Shown: positions 3,020 through 63,075 of the stretch, one piece after another
Layout of the letters: each line of letters begins with the position of its first letter
How positions within the stretch are numbered: position 1 is the stretch's first letter
NCBI GenBank assembly: GCA_964347335.1
Contig: CAYFYO010000003.1
Span: forward strand, 6,180-70,179
Origin: an uncultured Thermodesulfobacteriota bacterium
Lineage (GTDB): Bacteria; Desulfobacterota; BSN033; WVXP01
Reading direction: 5' to 3'
DNA length: 64,000 nucleotides
The notes under the pieces: model-generated
The model's input: only the letters and a program-made list of their open reading frames with translations
Databases searched by the model: none
What the model was told of the DNA's origin: nothing
Program-made: the position numbers and the translations under genes

Positions 3020-3639
3020 GCGTATTTTTAGCTTCGAGGTTAGAGACTTCCGCTCACCATTCCAAGATCCTCTTTTTCAAACCGACCGAGCCTGCAATCG
3101 TCGTGAATCTCCAGAATTCCTGAATCAGCCGGGCGAGGCGTGATCCGCGGTCTGATCTCAACCCTCTACGACGCTTCCGGTGAAATTATTGGAGTTTCCG
3201 GATTTTTTGGTTTCTCGCCTAACGAATATTCGCCCAACTTCCTCTGAGCCCTCCTTCAAATGTTTTGGTTCACAAACCTTCGAGATAAGGGAAAAGGAGT
3301 GTAGCGACACTCGGAATCGGATTTTTTGCACTTATCTCAATTCATGAAAGCGCATGAAGTCCGTTTCTCCATCTCTCGCAGAACGCGCTGAGATCTCTGA
3401 GTCTTGACCTGAATCGCTGAGCGGGTGAGAGAGAGTGTGGTCGGGCATTGTCCTGAAAAGCCAATATGAAGACATCTGATGCATCCGGATTCGTTATCTC
3501 ACCCATGGCGCGTTTTTTCAGATAACTCCAGTGAAATTATGGTTGATTTTTGGATTTTGGTTGCTAGAATTGATAGAGTCGAAGGCGGCCACATTCTCGG
3601 GAGCCACAGCTCAAGAGTCAGTTTTGGATTGGGGGTATC

Positions 3640-6905: not shown

Positions 6906-9479
6906 GTGGATCAAAGGATCGATCAGATTTTTCCCCTCGTATCTTGCCCAGCCCGTTACATGGGTGGGGAAAAGAATGCCGTCCAGAGGCCTTCTGACCA
7001 CGTCGAACTCCGGGTTGCCCTCGCCTTTCCCGATGTTTACGAGGTGGCCATGTCTCATGTGGGATTGGATATTCTGTACAACATCCTGAATCGAAGAGAG
7101 AATACTATCGCCGAACGGGTTTTCGCCCCATGGCCCGATATGGAAGGTCACATGAGGGCCAGAGGGATCCCTCTCGTAACACTCGAATCCTCTCGCCCCC
7201 TGCGGGATTTCGATGTTGTCGGCTTTTCACTCCAGTACGAACTCAGTTACACCAACCTTTTGAACATGCTCGATCTTGCTGGAATTCCCGTCTACGCCCG
7301 AACCCGTGGTGACGAATTTCCACTCGTGATCGCCGGTGGACCCAGCACGACTAATCCCGAGCCTATCGCAGACTTCTTGGATGCCGCCGTGATTGGAGAG
7401 GGCGAGGAGGTCATTTTGGAGATCTGCGATCGTGTCATCGAAGGAAAAAAGAATGGACGATCAAAAGCATCCCTGTTAGACGAACTCTCGCAGATCGAGG
7501 GGGTTTACGTCCCCTCCCTTTTCCATGTGGACTACCATAAGAACGGGAAGGTCAAGAGGATCGTTCCCCTTCGGGAGGATTACGGTCATGTCAGGAGAAG
7601 GATTGTTCACGATCTCAATAATATCTCCTATCCGACCGATCCCGTCGTGCCATGGTTGAAAGCAATCCATGACCGGCTGAGTGTTGAAATCGCCCGTGGA
7701 TGCAAGCGGGGCTGTCGATTTTGTCATGCGGGGTATATTTATCGCCCGTACCGCGAGCGAAGACCGGAAATCATCGAGGATATCATCAGAAAATCGCTTG
7801 ACACAACGGGCTACGAAGAGCTCTCTTTCCTCTCCCTCAGCACTGGAGACTATGGGGACATCGAGACCCTTCTCGCCAGGGTCATGGACCATTGTCAGAG
7901 AGGAAATGTGGCCCTTTCCTTTCCATCCCTTCGGGTGGAGACGCTAAACTCGGAGATGGTCCAGCAGATCAAAAGGGTTCGAAAAACAGGATTCACTTTG
8001 GCTCCGGAGGCAGCGACAGAGAGGCTGAGGCGGGTCATCAACAAGGAAATGGACGAGGAGAATCTGCTCGAGACAGCGAGAACGATTTACCACCATGGCT
8101 GGAACCTCATCAAACTCTACTTTATGATTGGCCTCCCGACCGAAACCGATGACGACGTGAGGGAGATGATTCATCTGGCCGAAAAGGTTCTCAAACAGGG
8201 CAAAGGGCTTAAGAGGCCCCCCCGCCTCAATGTGAGCGTATCGACCTTTGTGCCGAAACCCCATACCCCTTTCCAATGGGAACCCCAATTCACGCTGCCA
8301 GAGATACGTCTCAGACAGGAACTGCTTCAGAAAGGATTGAACTCTGGGAGAATCCGGTTCAAGTGGCATGACCCTAGGATGAGCCTTTTGGAGGGAGCAT
8401 TCTCCCGGGGCGGCAGGGAATTGTTTCGAGTCATTCACGATGCATGGCAAATGGGGTGCCGATTCGATGGCTGGAGCGAGTCTTTCAATTGGAAACGCTG
8501 GCTGAAAGCCTTTGAGAGGAATGGCATTGCCATCGATGCTTACACCCGACGCAGGGGGTTTTCTGAAATCCTCCCATGGAGCCATATTAAGTGCGGGGTT
8601 ACCGAGGGGTTTCTCAGAAATGAATGGGAGCGGTCCAGGGGGGAAGCCGGAACGCCTTCGTGTCGGACGGCGTGCACGGCATGTGGGATATGTGATGGAA
8701 AAGAAACCGCGGTGGTCTCTTGGAAGAAGCGCGAGAACCCTCCCGTCTCGACGATGCCCGTCCGAAAAAAAGGGGAGAAACCCATCACCCTCATCTTGGA
8801 ATTCGAGAAAGCAGGCCCTGCCAGGTTCCTGGGCCATCTCGACATGGCGAGAGCATTTCATCGTGCTGCGAGACGAGCGCGCATTCCCCTTCGATATTCC
8901 CAGGGCTTCCATCCTGCCCCCAGGATAAGTTTTGAAAGCGCTTTGGCCCTTGGCCTGGAGAGTCTGTGCGAGAAGATGAAATGGCAACTCGACATCCCCG
9001 TAGCCGATGAGTTGCTCCTGGCCGGAGTGAATCGGGAACTGCCTCCGGGACTCCACATCAAGCGACTCCTCCATGTCGGAGGAAAGCACCGTTTTGTCGG
9101 AGGAGCCGAGATGTGGTATCGGTACCTCGTGGCATTTCCCGAGGGTGTGTCGATGAGGCTTCAAAATCGGGTTCAGGAGTTCCTTGCGAGTGACCGATGG
9201 ATCGTGTCATGGGATGGGAAAGAACAGGAATATAACATCCGGCCCCATTTCGAATCGGTGATCCTTGCCAATGCGGTCTCTCTTGACGAATCTGTGATGG
9301 ATGTCTGGGCCGACCTTATCTGCGAGAAGGCGGGCTTTCTGGAAGTCATATTTCATCGAAGAGACAACATGAAGATTCGGATTGACAGAGCCCTCAGCAC
9401 AATGCTGTCTCTATCTGAGGAAACGAGGAGCCAGATCAGAATTCTCAAACTCGATGGGGCGAGCGCTCATGGTCGCTGA
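6906..9479 (+). CDS. radical SAM protein, B12-binding/rSAM domain fused to DUF2344-like C-terminal domain (TIGR03960/TIGR03936-type)
   Basis: GTG start; CxxxCxxC motif ARGCKRGCRFC; MGGEKN N-terminus; classic partner of RNase E/G genes; 857 aa. Confidence 0.8.
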   Translation: MDQRIDQIFPLVSCPARYMGGEKNAVQRPSDHVELRVALAFPDVYEVAMSHVGLDILYNILNRRENTIAERVFAPWPDMEGHMRARGIPLVTLESSRPLRDFDVVGFSLQYELSYTNLLNMLDLAGIPVYARTRGDEFPLVIAGGPSTTNPEPIADFLDAAVIGEGEEVILEICDRVIEGKKNGRSKASLLDELSQIEGVYVPSLFHVDYHKNGKVKRIVPLREDYGHVRRRIVHDLNNISYPTDPVVPWLKAIHDRLSVEIARGCKRGCRFCHAGYIYRPYRERRPEIIEDIIRKSLDTTGYEELSFLSLSTGDYGDIETLLARVMDHCQRGNVALSFPSLRVETLNSEMVQQIKRVRKTGFTLAPEAATERLRRVINKEMDEENLLETARTIYHHGWNLIKLYFMIGLPTETDDDVREMIHLAEKVLKQGKGLKRPPRLNVSVSTFVPKPHTPFQWEPQFTLPEIRLRQELLQKGLNSGRIRFKWHDPRMSLLEGAFSRGGRELFRVIHDAWQMGCRFDGWSESFNWKRWLKAFERNGIAIDAYTRRRGFSEILPWSHIKCGVTEGFLRNEWERSRGEAGTPSCRTACTACGICDGKETAVVSWKKRENPPVSTMPVRKKGEKPITLILEFEKAGPARFLGHLDMARAFHRAARRARIPLRYSQGFHPAPRISFESALALGLESLCEKMKWQLDIPVADELLLAGVNRELPPGLHIKRLLHVGGKHRFVGGAEMWYRYLVAFPEGVSMRLQNRVQEFLASDRWIVSWDGKEQEYNIRPHFESVILANAVSLDESVMDVWADLICEKAGFLEVIFHRRDNMKIRIDRALSTMLSLSEETRSQIRILKLDGASAHGR

Positions 9480-10986
9480 GCTTATTATGAATGCCTCTTT
9501 GGAGGAAACCCGGGTAGCCCTCATTGAGGGGGGCACGGTTGTGGAAGTCCATATCGAGAGAAACAAAGATCGGAGCATTGTGGGGAACATTTATCGGGGC
9601 AGAACGGTGAAGGTTCTTCCGGGCATGCAGGCGGCCTTCGTGGATATCGGCCTGGAGCGCGCGGCCTTTCTGTATGTTTCGGATGCCTATAGCAGCATCA
9701 AGGAGTATTCTCAAATGTTGAATGAGGGTTTTGAGGATCAAGATGCGCTTGAGCTTCAGTCTCCCCATCCCTCCTTCATCGAATCTGTGCAGATTGAAGA
9801 CGTCGTTCGCGAGGGCCAAGAACTTCTCGTCCAGGTTTCTCGGGAGCCTCTAGGAACCAAGGGGACCCGAATCACTTCCCATATCAGCCTTCCGGGACGA
9901 TACCTTGTCTTCATGCCAACGGTGGATCACATTGGGGTTTCGAGACGAATCAGAGACGAGTCCGAAAGGCATCGGTTGAGGGATATTGTACTCGCTGTCA
10001 GACCTCCAGGTGCAGGATTCATCGTCAGGACAGCCAGTGAAGGGGCCCATGAAGAAGAATTCCGGAATGATATGGAAATGCTGACAAAAATTTGGGAAAA
10101 CGTTCAGCGCAAAAATGACGGGGCGCCGACTCCCAGCCTGATTCACAGCGATCACGACATGGTTCTGAGGGCGATCCGGGATCTGATTACACCGGATGTA
10201 AAGCGTGTGGTCATCGATTCAGCAGAGGACTACGAAAGGATAATTCATTTTGTCGAGACCTATATGCCTCGCATAAAATGCGACATCGATCTCTATACGG
10301 GGAGGACCCCAATCTTCGATGCCCACGGCATCGAAACAGAGCTAGACAAAGCTCTGAAGCGCAAGGTCTGGCTGAAGTCTGGTGGACACATCCTCATCGA
10401 GATGACAGAGGCACTGACGGCCATTGACGTGAATACAGGCAAATTCGTCGGGAAGAGGAATCTCGAAGAGACAATACTGAAAACCAACCTCGAGGCCGCC
10501 AAGGAAATTGCTTATCAGCTTCGTTTGAGAGATATCGGCGGTATCATTATCATCGATTTCATTGACATGGAGAAAGATTCGAATCGGGAAATGGTTCATC
10601 AGGCTCTCGAACTCGCCTTAGCAAAGGATCGCACCAAATCGAATATTTCGAAAATATCCGAGTTAGGGCTCGTTGAGATGACTCGGAAAAGAACGAGAGA
10701 GAATCTTAGCCAGCTCTTGGGAGAGACCTGTCCCCATTGTGAGGGGCTTGGATATGTGAAGTCGAAGACAACGATTTGCTATGAGATTTTTAGAGAAATC
10801 GAACGAATCTCCTCCGATCTTGGCGGCGATACAGTTATGGTCGACGTCAATCCTGAAGTTGCCGAGATGCTTTGCGACGAGGAAAGAGCAGGCATAGAAC
10901 ACCTCGAAAGGAAGTTAGGTAAGAGAATCGTCGTGCAGGAGATACCTCGCTTCGAGCAGAGTGAATTTGAGATTGTGGACGTGTGA
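9469..10986 (+). CDS. rng: ribonuclease G (Rne/Rng family, S1 domain)
   Basis: MVAELIMNASLEETRVALIEGG...GNIYRGRTVKVLPGMQAAFVDIGLERAAFLYVSD aligns with the E. coli RNase G N-terminus; ATG overlaps the upstream stop by 11 nt. Confidence 0.9.
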   Translation: MVAELIMNASLEETRVALIEGGTVVEVHIERNKDRSIVGNIYRGRTVKVLPGMQAAFVDIGLERAAFLYVSDAYSSIKEYSQMLNEGFEDQDALELQSPHPSFIESVQIEDVVREGQELLVQVSREPLGTKGTRITSHISLPGRYLVFMPTVDHIGVSRRIRDESERHRLRDIVLAVRPPGAGFIVRTASEGAHEEEFRNDMEMLTKIWENVQRKNDGAPTPSLIHSDHDMVLRAIRDLITPDVKRVVIDSAEDYERIIHFVETYMPRIKCDIDLYTGRTPIFDAHGIETELDKALKRKVWLKSGGHILIEMTEALTAIDVNTGKFVGKRNLEETILKTNLEAAKEIAYQLRLRDIGGIIIIDFIDMEKDSNREMVHQALELALAKDRTKSNISKISELGLVEMTRKRTRENLSQLLGETCPHCEGLGYVKSKTTICYEIFREIERISSDLGGDTVMVDVNPEVAEMLCDEERAGIEHLERKLGKRIVVQEIPRFEQSEFEIVDV

Positions 10987-11030
10987 GGTTCACCCGATCG
11001 GATTTCACAGATCCTCCCCCAGCAGGACGA

Positions 11031-11320
11031 GGGAAAAAGGGGTAAGGAGGGGAACTCCGAACAAGCATTTGTTATTTGTCATTCGTTATTTGTTCCTTGT
11101 TATTTGTCATTTGGCACTTAACCCTCAGTCTCTCGTCTCCAGTCTCTAACCTTAGTCTCTAGCCTCTATTCTCTAATCTGTGGGCTCTAATCTCTGATCT
11201 CAACTCTCTACTCTCTCGTCTATGGCCTCTCGTCTCTGGCCTTTATCCTTGAACCTTTATCCTCTGACCCATGAGCCGGCCCCACGGCTTTCGCAAAGTC
11301 CCTCAGGGACAAAAGGATAT
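11031..11320 (+). repeat. intergenic heptanucleotide tandem-repeat element, copy 1
   Basis: About 34 consecutive degenerate 7-mers in one register (gggaaaa|aggggta|...|catttgt|tatttgt|...|tctctcg|tctccag|...|ctttatc|cttgaac|ctttatc|ctctgac), then conserved hairpin gtccctcagggac; homologous to copies at 19386 and 24030. Confidence 0.8.
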
Positions 11321-11352
11321 CTGAAACTCGAGAAATTGTTTCGAGTCGAACA

Positions 11353-11381
11353 TTGACTTTTCACGGGAAATGGCTTATTTT
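11353..11381 (+). promoter_or_regulatory. sigma70-like promoter for the rplU operon
   Basis: TTGACT-17 nt-TATTTT, 37 bp upstream of the rplU ATG. Confidence 0.5.
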
Positions 11382-11417: not shown

Positions 11418-11729
11418 ATGTATGCGATATTCGAGACAGGAGGAAAGCAGTATAAGGCGTCGGAAGGCGATCTTGTCCGGGTTGAGCGCCTGAATGGTCG
11501 GGTTGGCGACGAGGTCCGGATCACCGATGTATTGATGGTCGCTGACAAAAAGGGGCACAAGATCGGTACCCCGCTTGTGCCCAAGGCCCAGGTTATTGGG
11601 CAGATCGTTGAGCAGGGAAGGGACCGGAAGATCATCGTCTTTAAGCATAAACGGCGCAAGGGTTACCGCCGGAAAATCGGCCATCGTCAACCTTACACCT
11701 GTTTAAGAATCGACAAAATCAAGGGATGA
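11418..11729 (+). CDS. rplU: 50S ribosomal protein L21
   Basis: [25 protein letters not shown] conserved L21 N-terminus. Confidence 0.95.
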
Positions 11730-15494: not shown

Positions 15495-15583
15495 GGGCCG
15501 TTCCGCAAAGACTTATGATCATAATGGGCGAACACCAAAAACTCAGGAAACTCCGCTGAAATACCAGGAAAGGGAGGGTCACG

Positions 15584-19199: not shown

Positions 19200-19385
19200 T
19201 TTCCCAACCCGATGTCTATGACGATGAAGCCTTTAAAGTTTCCAGGGTATTACATGATCAATGATCGGCACGGCTTGAATGTCCCAATGATTTCGATTTC
19301 TCCTGGTAAACTCCATTGTCTCTTCCACTCGGACGCTCCCGCTGTGACCCTCTCTGGCTTCGTACACTCTCCTGTAGGAGGTCAA

Positions 19386-19470
19386 AGGAAAAAGGGGAAA
19401 GGAGCAAGGAGAACCCGAACAGACCTGAGTCCTCTCGCTTTATCCTTGAACCTCTATCCTCTGACCCATG
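19386..19470 (+). repeat. heptanucleotide-repeat element, short derivative (copy 2)
   Basis: ggaaaaaggggaaaggagcaagg...ctttatccttgaacctctatcctctgaccc matches both ends of copy 1 but lacks the long internal array; followed by GC hairpin cccgccgcaggcggg. Confidence 0.7.
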
Positions 19471-19644
19471 TTGGTGCCCCATCCCGCCGCAGGCGGGATC
19501 GCTCACGGACCATGGAGTTCACCAGAAACTAGGGAAACTTCGGTTTCACCTTTATTGATACTAAAGGGAGAGCCGCGAACTGTCGAAAAGACTGTTGGGG
19601 GATGAAGCAAGATTTTTCAGAGCACGAAGAGGGAAGGATTATCA

Positions 19645-23917: not shown

Positions 23918-24029
23918 TCGCCCTCCCACACCCTCACATCCGTGGCGTTATCCCTGATCAGATTGTATTTGGAAGGACCCCTGAAAACCTTAAGCGTGAA
24001 AGACTTCTGGGGATTTTCCCCAGTTTTGT

Positions 24030-24300
24030 GGACGCTCATGTCCCCGAGGGACGTTTGCGGAAGCGGTGGGATTCTCAGAAAGACTGGAGACCGGAGACTG
24101 GAGACGAGAGACTAGAGATTAAAGACTGGAGACGAGAGACTACAGATTAAAGGCTAGCGGCTAAAGGCTAAGGCCAAATAGCCAATAACCAATACCCAAT
24201 GACCGATAACAAATAACTGATGACCAGTAACAAGTAACCAATAACAAACGCTCGTTAGGAGTGCATTTCCTTGAACCTTTTGCCCTTTTCCTTGATCCTG
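24030..24300 (-). repeat. intergenic heptanucleotide tandem-repeat element, inverted copy 3
   Basis: On the plus strand about 25 phased 7-mers (cggagac|tggagac|gagagac|...|caataac|...) are the reverse-complement classes of copy 1; flank gtccccgagggacgtttgcggaag is the reverse-complement homolog of the copy-1 3' flank. Confidence 0.8.
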
Positions 24301-24708
24301 CGAGAGCAGAGTCTGTGAGCCCCGAGAGGGTCAACGCGAGAGCAAGGGAGCGAAGGGATATGGGCGTTCCATCTGAAGATCCAAGATTCTTTGAAGCATC
24401 AAGAGGTTAGAAACTTCTTGCTTTGAAAACTCAGGAAACTCCAAAAGGCTTCTTCGTTGACAACGCCTTCCAAAATCGTTACCCTTGAATTCCAGGGAGG
24501 GCATAATCATGTCAGAGGCCGCGGCTTTGCCATATGACCTGGCCCTCCAGGATACCAAGAAGTGTCATCCTTCCCTATTGGAACCGCCTTCTAGGCGCAT
24601 ATCCCGATCCCCCCCTGGAAAAACTCAGCCACGAGGTGAGGACTCTTCGGATCCATGCATGAGAATCATCCCTGGAGGGTGAAGCGTATTGAGAAGAGCA
24701 AGGGAAGA

Positions 24709-26322
24709 ACGATGAAGAAAATGATGCTAATCAATGCGGCCCAGACCGGCGAATGTCGGGTGGCCATTCTGGAAGATGGAAACCTCGTGCAGCTCAACAT
24801 AGAAACGAGCGGACGAGAGAAATCGAAGGGCAACATATATCACGGCATTGTCACTCACGTCGAGCCGAGTTTCCAGGCCGCCTTCGTTGACTATGGTGGA
24901 AGACGTCATGGTTTTCTCTCCATGTCTGAAATGAATCCCCAAAATTTCGACAAACCGGCTGAAGCGAAAGAGAAACTCCGAATCGAACACTTATTGAAGC
25001 GAGGGCAAAAAATCCCCGTCCAGGTGATAAAGGAAGAGACATCGAACAAGGGGGCAGCGCTGACGACCTATATCTCCCTTCCGGGAAGGTACCTCGTTTT
25101 GATGCCAGGAAGCAAGAGCCATGGCGTGTCTCGGAAGATCGGAGACGAAAAACGGCGAGCAAGGCTTAAGGAGATTGTCAAAGACTTCAAATTGCCTGAG
25201 GGGATGGGCTTTATCGTTCGAACAGCAGGTGTGGACGAGAGCAAAAGGGAACTTTTCAGGGACTGCTCATACCTGTTACGACTGTGGGAAAGTATACAGG
25301 CAAAAATGCAAGAAATCCCCGCACCTTCGCTGCTTTATCAGGAGAGCCATGTCCTTATACAGTCCATCCGAGAGTATTTCACTACGGACATGGAGGTTCT
25401 CGTAGATGACAAAGAAGCCTATCGCGAGGTTAAAGATTTCTTTCGGCAGTTGATGGCTCAATACCAGCGAAGGGTAAAACTCTATCAAGACAAAAGGCCC
25501 CTTTTTGCCGCATTCAACCTGGAAGAGCAGATCGAGGCCATCTACGCTCGCGAAGTTCCTCTGAGATCGGGCGGAAGCATCTCCATCGATCCCACCGAGG
25601 CACTTGTCTCTATCGATGTGAACTCTGGGAGACTCGGAAAGTCCAAGAGCATTGAACAGACAGCCCTCAACACGAATCTGGAGGCGGCAGAGGAAATCGC
25701 CCGACAATTGCGGTTGAGAGATCTGGGTGGGCTCATCGTCATCGATTTCATCGATATGAAGGACCGGAAACACAACATGGAGGTGGAACGCTGCCTTCGC
25801 AATGGGTTAAAGAAGGACAAGGCCAAGACGGATATCTCCCGGATTTCGAAATTTGGGCTCTTAGAGATGTCTCGACAGAGACTCAAGACCCCCCTGGCCG
25901 AAGAGAGCTACAAAGTTTGCTCCTATTGTCGCGGTCGGGGGAGGGTAAAATCCACAGAGTCCGTGGCGCTCGTGGTCTTGCGGAAGATCCTCGAAAGGGT
26001 CATTGAGGGGAACGTGGCCCTCGTCAAAGGGGCGTTCTCAAGGCCCGTGGCGACACACCTTCTCAACCGTAAGCGAAGAGAGATCGCCGAAATCGAAAGG
26101 GAGTTTCATCTTCAAATCTGGTTTACCAGTCAGTGGGAAATGGCCCCAGATGAATACGACCTCGAGTTTCTGACCCGTGAGGAACTCGAAAGGCTCGAGG
26201 AGGGAGAAATCGAAAAGGAAAGGCACCCCCTCGGTTCCAAGTCAATCCCAATACCCTCTTTGCCAAGGTTTGAGGATGATGCGGTCAAGAAACCCTGGTA
26301 TCTAAAGATCCTCAGGCGATGA
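24709..26322 (+). CDS. ribonuclease E/G family protein (second paralog)
   Basis: S1 domain and catalytic-domain homology to Rne/Rng (GNIYHGIVTHVEPSFQAAFVDYG); AAGGGA RBS before ATG 24709; preceded by a roughly 400-nt leader. Confidence 0.85.
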   Translation, partial: TMKKMMLINAAQTGECRVAILEDGNLVQLNIETSGREKSKGNIYHGIVTHVEPSFQAAFVDYGGRRHGFLSMSEMNPQNFDKPAEAKEKLRIEHLLKRGQKIPVQVIKEETSNKGAALTTYISLPGRYLVLMPGSKSHGVSRKIGDEKRRARLKEIVKDFKLPEGMGFIVRTAGVDESKRELFRDCSYLLRLWESIQAKMQEIPAPSLLYQESHVLIQSIREYFTTDMEVLVDDKEAYREVKDFFRQLMAQYQRRVKLYQDKRPLFAAFNLEEQIEAIYAREVPLRSGGSISIDPTEALVSIDVNSGRLGKSKSIEQTALNTNLEAAEEIARQLRLRDLGGLIVIDFIDMKDRKHNMEVERCLRNGLKKDKAKTDISRISKFGLLEMSRQRLKTPLAEESYKVCSYCRGRGRVKSTESVALVVLRKILERVIEGNVALVKGAFSRPVATHLLNRKRREIAEIEREFHLQIWFTSQWEMAPDEYDLEFLTREELERLEEGEIEKERHPLGSKSIPIPSLPRFEDDAVKKPWYLKILRR

Positions 26323-29057: not shown

Positions 29058-29699
29058 CGCCCTTAGGCGAGCTTTCGCGGTGATAGTTATTACAAAAAAC
29101 CCTCGAAAAAATCAATGATCAATGGATGAGGAGTTAGCCCGTTCTTCAATGCAGCGTTGGCCTATGATTTTGATTTTGTTCAAAAATCCAATTTGCGAAG
29201 TGGATTCTCCCATCCCTTCGCTCCCACGCTCTCACGGTGACCCTATGGCGGTTCGCAGGTGGGGAAAGCCTCCCCCTTCCTGCTCACACGCGGCGGGTAC
29301 CCCACCGCTTCCGCTGACGCCGCTCAGGAATAAGAGAATCCGCCACAACTGAGGAAGGTGCTCCCATACTCCTGGTTGACCTCCGAATTTCTGGGACAAC
29401 TCCTCTCGATGGGTCCGAATATCCACAGCCCAGATTCGGAACATCCGAAAATAATATCGGAAATAGTGGATCTGCGGATCTGGAGTTCACCAACATGGTT
29501 CTGGGAGAATATTTTGAAATGTGATTGACTCGAACCGAGAAACCTGGAATCATAATGAATCCAGGACACCCTTGCTGCCCTCAGTGACAATCGAATGAGT
29601 TCCATGAATTCCACCGGGCCAAGCGGCTACCTCGGGGCTTAAGAACCCCTCGGGCAGTTTTCGTCTCAGTCAACATGCTCGGAGGAGGAGAGACCCTCT

Positions 29700-62812: not shown

Positions 62813-62821
62813 CTGAGTCAC

Positions 62822-63075
62822 GAAATGTTTGGGTGTAGGGAAGACGGTGAGAAGCCGTCGCGGACCCGCCGCTGTGAGTGGGGACGAAAGCCACAGAGTG
62901 GGCCACTATTTCGCTCGAGCGGAATGGGAAGGCGTGGTGAGTAGGAGGATCCACGAGCCAGAAAACCTGCCCAAGACGTTGCTCCAAAAACATTCCTCGA
63001 GGGGTGGGAATATGGAGTCGGCGAGGGAAGTCGGTCTGATCGCAATCCGGGGTCAGGCTTTTTTTGTCTTCGAGA
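62822..63075 (+). ncRNA. cobalamin (B12) riboswitch, cis-regulatory leader
   Basis: GGGAAGACGGTGAGAAGCCGTCGCGGACCCGCCGCTGTGAGTGGGGACGAAAGCCACAG core and B12 box GAGCCAGAAAACCTGCCC; T-run GGCTTTTTTTG about 63058-63068. Confidence 0.75.

Follow-up and report, generated by a model that had tools for sequence, protein, structure and literature searches.

A phased heptanucleotide array upstream of rplU as the probable interior of a decayed MITE copy

The rng–rplU spacer and its periodic tract

In the window, which is the whole stretch of 64,000 nucleotides analysed here, the RNase G gene rng (9382–10986) is followed by rplU (11418–11729). The spacer between them had been predicted to carry an intergenic element of about 240 bp made up of phased heptanucleotides. 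Self-identity of the segment 11031–11320 at a lag of 7 nt was 0.541, whereas 500 dinucleotide-preserving shuffles gave 0.261 (z = 10.4). The signal recurred as harmonics at lags of 14 (z = 8.2), 21 (z = 5.8) and 28 nt (z = 5.3), and no other lag between 1 and 29 exceeded z = 2.4. The 7-bp periodicity is therefore well beyond chance, as claimed. A recent 14-nt duplication lies at 11213–11242, and its copies are 93% matched according to Tandem Repeats Finder. The same program placed arrays with periods of 7, 14 and 27 within 11067–11263. When the 64 kb were scanned with a sliding segment, lag-7 identity rose above 0.52 at only two sites, 11012–11299 and 24043–24281, the second belonging to a periodic tract (24043–24284) of the opposite strand orientation.

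Read on the plus strand, the tract upstream of rplU begins with a purine-rich head, GCAGGACGAGGGAAAAAGGGGTAAGGAGGGGAA (11022–11054). The head is phased by 7 nt, is homologous to AAAGGAAAAAGGCAAAAGGTTCAAGGAG of the short copies described below and corresponds to the 5' arm of an ancestral hairpin. Block A (11066–11114, plus strand) consists of seven units of the (C/T)ATTTGT type, with the phase of TTGT constant from 11069 to 11104. Block B (11129–11240, plus strand) is built of (T)CTCTNN / GTCTC units, about 16 in number, with periods of 27, 14 and 7, while block C (11241–11268, plus strand), with the units CTTTATC CTTGAAC CTTTATC CTCTGAC, is complementary to the head and corresponds to the 3' arm of the ancestral hairpin. 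A conserved 3' tail module (11269–11320, plus strand) completes the tract and includes the hairpin GTCCCTCAGGGAC at 11298–11310. This GC hairpin had been singled out in the original prediction as a conserved feature following the array. It is indeed present, but as part of the 3' module of a larger element rather than as a feature of its own.

The 7-nt register is almost constant, and the claim of a single register holds except for one 6-nt unit in block B (CCTTAG, near 11150), which shifts the phase by −1. Similarly, the count of about 34 consecutive 7-mers starting at 11031 describes a real array, but the first five (11031–11065) belong to the purine-rich arm of the ancestral hairpin and lie outside the pyrimidine-rich array. 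Pyrimidines account for 71% of this array on the plus strand as against 49% for the window, and the two arrays in the window span 65–71% on one strand. No open reading frame longer than 62 aa crosses the array and none is plausible, in line with the expectation that no protein would be encoded.

Alignment of the two periodic sites, here called copy 1 (upstream of rplU) and copy 2, showed homology well beyond the repeats. They have in common a purine-rich head (GCAGGA..GGAAAA..AAGGA..ACTCC.AAC), a non-repeat segment (GTTsACCC..TCGG..TCACAGA), the order of the unit classes and a tail (CCCACsGCTTyCGCAAA(c)GTCCCTCrGGGACA). Copy 1, which aligns with copy 2 over head, array and tail and has a heptamer-type centre, extends from 10987 to about 11332 on the plus strand; the proposed size of about 240 bp was thus too small. 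It begins right after the rng stop codon (10984–10986), at a point that corresponds to about nucleotide 110 of the full element, while decay has left CTGAAACTCGAG (11321–11332) as its 3' terminus. With its 5' end missing and its 3' terminus decayed, copy 1 is a truncated relic, and for the same reasons it is probably immobile.

A family of dispersed MITEs

Copy 2 (24011–24442, minus strand) is a full-length MITE of 432 nt. Its 5' terminus, GGAGTTTCCTGAGTTTTC, lies at 24425–24442 and is matched by the inverted end CAAAACTGGGGAAAATCCCC, so that the complete copy has inverted termini of the form GGAGTTTCC…GGAAACTCC. Target-site duplications flank it on the left (AGAAGCCTTT; 24444–24453) and on the right (AGAAGTCTTT; 23999–24008), both read on the minus strand and agreeing at 9 of 10 bases. 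The array of this copy (about 24066–24253) keeps one 7-nt register over about 190 nt and includes a 28-nt block duplicated at 24095–24152 with 96% identity. The window contains four copies or relics in total. Copy 3 (19318–19541, plus strand) is 5'-truncated with a divergent tail, and has an unexpanded heptamer-type centre in which about 25 nt separate the head from the 3' arm. Copy 4 (29192–29365, plus strand) is also 5'-truncated and has a GC-rich centre without heptamers.

An exact-pattern scan of one genome per species with the tail pattern GCTTYCGCAAAN{0,1}GTCCCTCRGGGAC, in which GTCCCTCRGGGAC is the hairpin, returned 39 matches on 34 contigs, dispersed and with flanks unrelated to one another. 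One MAG, 'Proteobacteria bacterium CS1-C027' (WVXP01), accounted for all of them, and the tail of copy 1 matches this family. Many of the matches lie at contig ends, as expected because repeats break assemblies. Deep marine sediment is the source of this MAG, which has a size of 3.7 Mb with 50.7% G+C (PMC8319310). Synteny between it and the window, at about 79% nucleotide identity, shows that the window comes from a related genome, not from the MAG itself.

Copy 2 and the MAG copies bear the terminal inverted repeats (5' GGAGTTTCCTGAGTTTTC, 3' GAAAACTGAGGAAACTCC), and the termini follow the form (NN)GGAGTTTCC…GGAAACTCC(NN). The outer two bases beyond GGAG…CTCC vary by sub-family (CT/AG, GT/AC, GA/TC) and are complementary between the ends in 16 of 21 copies, extending the inverted repeat by two variable bases. 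Direct repeats of about 9 bp (7–12 matching bases) flank 17 of the 21 full-length copies, as exemplified by TATCTTTTC in locus L032 and AGTCGTCTTAC in L039. Copy lengths range from 186 to 432 nt with a mode of 261–262 nt. The element codes for no protein and contains short chance ORFs only.

Orthologous rng–rplU spacers were obtained by way of RNase G homologues, the closest of which belong to MAGs labelled Proteobacteria or Deltaproteobacteria. In relatives with 79% RNase G identity, the spacer is empty and measures about 190 nt (L042/L043) or about 90 nt (L044), with the same promoter, TTGACTTTTG…TTAGATT / TTAAATT. In a relative at 83% (L039/L040), it is occupied by two tandem MITEs without heptamers, of which one is full-length and has a GC-rich centre; AGTCGTCTTAC flanks them as a direct repeat, with the −35 box 14 nt past the element end. 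A relative at 73% (L045/L046) has a degenerate element relic with a short GTGTTCG heptamer tract. With spacers differently occupied or empty, this spacer has thus taken several independent hits. A JGI contig with 98% identical RNase G (P0001) has a spacer of 397 nt versus 431 nt in the window, and the difference may represent an array-length allele.

The rplU promoter proposed originally, TTGACT-17-TATTTT, was found among the predicted promoters at 11353–11381 on the plus strand. It is host sequence outside the element and is kept in spacers with and without a MITE. Since it lies 3' of the array and persists in relatives that do not have the element, the array falls outside the rplU leader. 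For the same reason of position, and because no terminator is predicted after rng, transcription of the array is probably limited to the rng 3' untranslated region.

The original prediction had likened the tract to a MITE, and proposed counting copies and looking for target-site duplications as a check. The abundance of copies in the related MAG and the duplications at most full-length copies bear this out, together with the terminal inverted repeats and the empty sites. The array, however, is only the variable interior of an element of about 260–430 bp. The structure of the element and its insertion polymorphism suggest that it has been mobile. In neither the window nor the 88 fetched loci did a search for a parent IS find a terminus pair around a long ORF, and no similarity to the element was found in plasmid and phage collections. 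The sequence family, unmatched in these collections and in Rfam, is new.

The element resembles bacterial MITEs such as Correia/NEMIS, ERIC, RUP and MITEAba12 in being small (262–432 nt) and non-coding, with inverted termini and fixed 9-bp duplications. Like them, it has dozens of dispersed intergenic copies, shows insertion polymorphism among relatives and has left many truncated relics. It differs from them in belonging to a new sequence family, in inserting close to TTGAC hexamers and in having an expanding heptamer array in one subfamily. Its modular build, in which conserved modules at the ends enclose internal ones of varying number, also resembles that of the pneumococcal BOX elements, which have 45-nt boxB units and are without clear inverted termini or target-site duplications. 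Another counterpart is the BrickBuilt MITE of Porphyromonas gingivalis, which contains an internal minisatellite with a 23-nt unit (PMC4596501). As in the element described here, leader and tail subunits enclose an internal tandem repeat of varying copy number, and the location is always intergenic. Unlike the homogeneous 23-nt unit of BrickBuilt, the unit here is 7 nt long, heterogeneous and drifting, and stems from a 7-nt-phased hairpin.

Other small elements have the same termini and different interiors. One of these, at 3191–3529 in the window (plus strand, 339 nt), has the related termini GGAGTTTCCGGATTTTTT … CAGATAACTCC and is flanked by GTGAAATTAT, a 10-bp duplication without mismatch. 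A solo terminus with one mismatch, GGAGTTTCCTGAGTTTTT, abuts a coding region at 15537–15554 (minus strand) and is probably a relic; over its first 30 nt it is similar to the beginning of the element at 3191. Another element type, which begins with GGAGTTTCCTCAAAAACCAG..ATGTA..TATGCAAGTAG, occurs in tandem with the main element at loci L010, L018, L021, L027, L036 and L039. Both element types share the same 9-bp duplicated target, indicating that exactly the same site was hit repeatedly. The window also contains two Rne/Rng-family ribonuclease genes within 15 kb (9382–10986 and 24655–26322), each with an array-bearing copy in a flanking spacer. The pairing of two ribonuclease genes with two array-bearing copies is probably a coincidence.

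Growth of the array and alternative readings

In most MAG copies the centre is GC-rich and free of heptamers. A heptamer sub-family (L016, L020, L023, L026 and L033) has the head AAAGGAA AAAGGCA AAAGGTT CAAGGAG, followed by a short loop and by CCTTTAA CCTTTAG CCTTTAT CCTTTAA. These complementary arms, (AAAGGNN)4 and (NNCCTTT)4, are phased by 7 nt, and in the short form they fold as a long hairpin (−19.7 kcal/mol, z = −5.95). In copy 3, which is unexpanded, and in the MAG copies, the sequence corresponding to block C directly adjoins the head. Head and tail are 42–49 nt apart in the five MAG copies and about 50 nt apart in copy 3, the distance rising to about 125 nt in a metagenomic relative (L068), 188 nt in copy 2 and 223 nt in copy 1. 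Expressed in heptamer units, the interval holds about 6–7 in the short copies versus about 27–32 in the expanded copies of the window. The expanded copies have their units in the order TTGTTAT / TGGTTAT-type, CCTTTAG-type and xGTCTCx-type, and the junction …CATTTGGCACTTAACCCTCAGTCTCTCGTCTCCAGTCTC… is common to copy 1 and L068. In all five array-bearing copies (copies 1 and 2 of the window; L068, L071 and L087) the array has the identical position between the same head and tail.

These comparisons suggest a route by which the array may have formed. The loop and 3' arm of the heptamer-phased hairpin expanded from about 45 to about 190–225 nt in the lineage of the window, probably through slipped replication or unequal exchange that added 7 nt or a multiple of it at a time. 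Point mutations in single units would later have been re-amplified, giving rise to the drifting unit classes and to the super-periods of 14, 21 and 28 nt. Judged from the repeat pattern, slippage or unequal exchange is the most likely cause of the expansion, and we infer that the array is a micro- or minisatellite seeded by a pre-existing heptamer-phased palindrome. The periodic tract upstream of rplU is thereby read, with a probability of about 0.8, as the expanded and fast-changing interior of a decayed MITE copy and as neither a stand-alone regulatory array nor an RNA gene.

The element is a MITE carrying an STRR-like heptanucleotide microsatellite and unites two known kinds of repeat. The earlier comparison with STRR applies to form, namely tandem heptamers in intergenic DNA, but not to unit sequence or to a cyanobacterial host. 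The STRR1–3 units are CCCCAGT, TTGGTCA and CAACAGT. They are not the units found here, where isolated TGGTCAT units alone resemble STRR2, and the host is an uncultured sediment bacterium labelled Proteobacteria/Deltaproteobacteria, not a cyanobacterium. In common with STRR and other heptameric repeats, the tract consists of intergenic tandem heptanucleotides with heterogeneous units, length variation and occasional inversion. It is set apart by its units (TATTTGT / TGGTTAT, CCTTTAG and xGTCTCx) and by being embedded in a transposable element. Across bacterial genomes, heptameric repeats are reportedly over-represented, for which polymerase slippage has been put forward as an explanation (PMC4692102). 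They are known in Xanthomonas (GGGAATC), Nostoc (GGGGAYT) and Calothrix (STRR), where their length varies greatly among close relatives and where they are sometimes inverted (PMC4692102). Repeats of TAACTGA have been described from Beggiatoaceae, cyanobacteria and Bacteroidetes (PMC4679880). The present case illustrates how a heptamer-phased hairpin can give rise to a long heterogeneous array, and bears on the old puzzle of why 7-nt repeats are over-represented in bacteria.

The distribution of the heptamers outside this family was assessed by a metagenome scan with the array 19-mer AGTCTCTCGTCTCCAGTCT, which gave 43 matches on 42 contigs (L047–L088). Three of these contigs, L068, L071 and L087, represent the same element, and their arrays differ in length. 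The remaining 39 contigs have unrelated flanks and 34–67% G+C, and almost every one has xGTCTCx tracts, which range from 3 up to about 26 units (L061, L063), showing that this repeat type is widespread outside the lineage. At 10 of the 43 matches there were at least three inverted GAGAC/TAGAC units within 200 nt, and several such contigs are hairpins of GAGAC and GTCTC heptamers (e.g., L055, z = −5.3). The related MAG has other heptamer tracts with the units GGATTTT, ACTTCTG and CAGTTGT / AACTGAC (L005 3173–3270; L014 250–320; L024 3405–3441; L034 3075–3105), those of L024 and L034 lying inside another element-like repeat.

The array was also put forward in the original prediction as a series of binding sites. 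In such a functional platform, OB-fold proteins (cold-shock proteins, S1) would bind one per unit on the rng 3' untranslated region or on single-stranded DNA, or else a DNA-binding protein would modulate rng/rplU. The pyrimidine bias on one strand with its preserved 7-nt phase is consistent with this, as is the recurrence of GTCTC-type tracts in many unrelated metagenomic contigs. Bacillus subtilis CspB reportedly binds heptamer direct repeats with one protein per heptamer and a preference for T-rich units (cited in PMC4679880). On the other hand, unit number and sequence vary freely among copies and relatives (6 to about 30 units), and most copies of the element have no array at all. Relatives keep the same rplU promoter without it, and copy 2 has no comparable gene arrangement beside it. 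With drifting units, freely varying copy number and no special fold, a binding-site array is unsupported and we consider it improbable. Most likely, the array itself serves no sequence-specific function. The strict phase, the pyrimidine bias and the recurrence of xGTCTCx in unrelated contigs could nevertheless stem from selection and not from neutral drift.

An autonomous STRR-like repeat, which arose or landed in the spacer independently and has only an incidental link to the MITE, would explain why tracts of the same units are found in unrelated contexts without this MITE. It would also fit the tracts in other intergenic regions of the related MAG, such as the GGATTTT units of L005. This explanation is less probable still, since all five array-bearing copies agree in internal position, head, tail and unit-class order, and since the short copies already bear the heptamer-phased arms from which the array grows.

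A known RNA or an encoded protein would have pointed away from a repeat, but there was neither an Rfam match nor a plausible ORF. At gathering thresholds, the only Rfam hit in the whole window was a cobalamin riboswitch at 62.8 kb (RF00174, 97 bits; 62814–62988, plus strand), and at a permissive E-value (E ≤ 1–10) both copies gave chance-level matches only. Folding was no better than that of shuffled sequences for copy 1 as RNA (z = +0.34) or copy 2 as DNA (z = +0.67), which excluded a structured RNA or a long foldback. No promoter was predicted ahead of copy 1 or copy 2, and no intrinsic terminator after the tail hairpin. A terminator role for the hairpin GTCCCTCAGGGAC was rejected, as it has no T-run behind it and the terminator scan was negative at copy 1; the sole terminator-like site falls on the opposite strand, at the mutated end of copy 2. 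A non-coding RNA gene (e.g., a protein sponge with repeated motifs) or a part of the ribosomal-protein leader might be read from the conserved head, tail and hairpin and from the several AGGA / AAGGA motifs of the head, but these Rfam, folding, promoter and terminator results and the position of the conserved rplU promoter downstream of the array make it the least credible reading, and the conservation is accounted for by recent transposition, given the target-site duplications and inverted termini.

The preferred reading, the interior of a decayed MITE copy, has a practical value for annotation. The periodic tract beside an essential ribosomal-protein operon should be regarded as the unstable interior of a transposon relic, and labels such as regulatory RNA or binding-site array should be avoided.

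Insertion beside −35-like hexamers

The pattern of insertion at the edge of promoters is of more interest than the array itself. At 15 of the 34 distinct 3' ends of MAG copies, drawn from loci L001–L038, TTGAC lies 13–14 nt beyond …GGAAACTCC. Its background frequency is 1 per 845 positions, which gives a binomial P of ~1e-30 for this number of 3' ends. TAnnnT often follows 16–18 nt after TTGAC, and in 14 of 16 cases the next ORF is co-directional.

The 5' flanks were used as a control and showed the same hexamer feature, read outward, in other copies. A fixed orientation of the 3' end toward the promoter was consequently dropped, since both orientations occur at about 2:1. Among the 19 full-length MAG copies, 15 have TTGAC 13–15 nt from a terminus, ten on the 3' side, five on the 5' side and none on both. 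The four others have it on neither side, and two of these adjoin another element. The position of copy 1 upstream of the rplU promoter is explained by this accumulation of the family beside −35-like hexamers.

From the sequence pattern, the data suggest that the insertion target is chosen 2–3 bp upstream of promoter −35 hexamers. More specifically, the superfamily with (NN)GGAGTTTCC termini would pick its sites by the sigma-70 −35 hexamer, with a 9-bp staggered cut 2–3 bp upstream of TTGAC(A/T) in either orientation. This is a tentative proposal, to which we assign somewhat less than an even chance. The hexamer pattern may originate from a transposase that reads the sequence, from one that reads promoter-bound polymerase, or from selection. 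A shallow literature search found no precedent for −35-targeted insertion in bacteria. If true, a bacterial transposon homing to the upstream edge of promoters would be a new mode of target selection in bacteria and a natural source of promoter-proximal variation. The hypervariable array of the one subfamily would then be a fast-mutating spacer immediately upstream of promoters, the rplU promoter being one example.

Hexamers of this kind were also seen beside individual copies. In the window, TTGATA lies 13 nt past the end of copy 3 (19541–19560) and TTGACC 11 nt past the end of copy 4 (29365–29382). A −35-like hexamer lies beside the element copy in L039 (5011–5031), and the element at 3191–3529 is followed downstream by TTGATT-16-TAGAAT (3531–3570).
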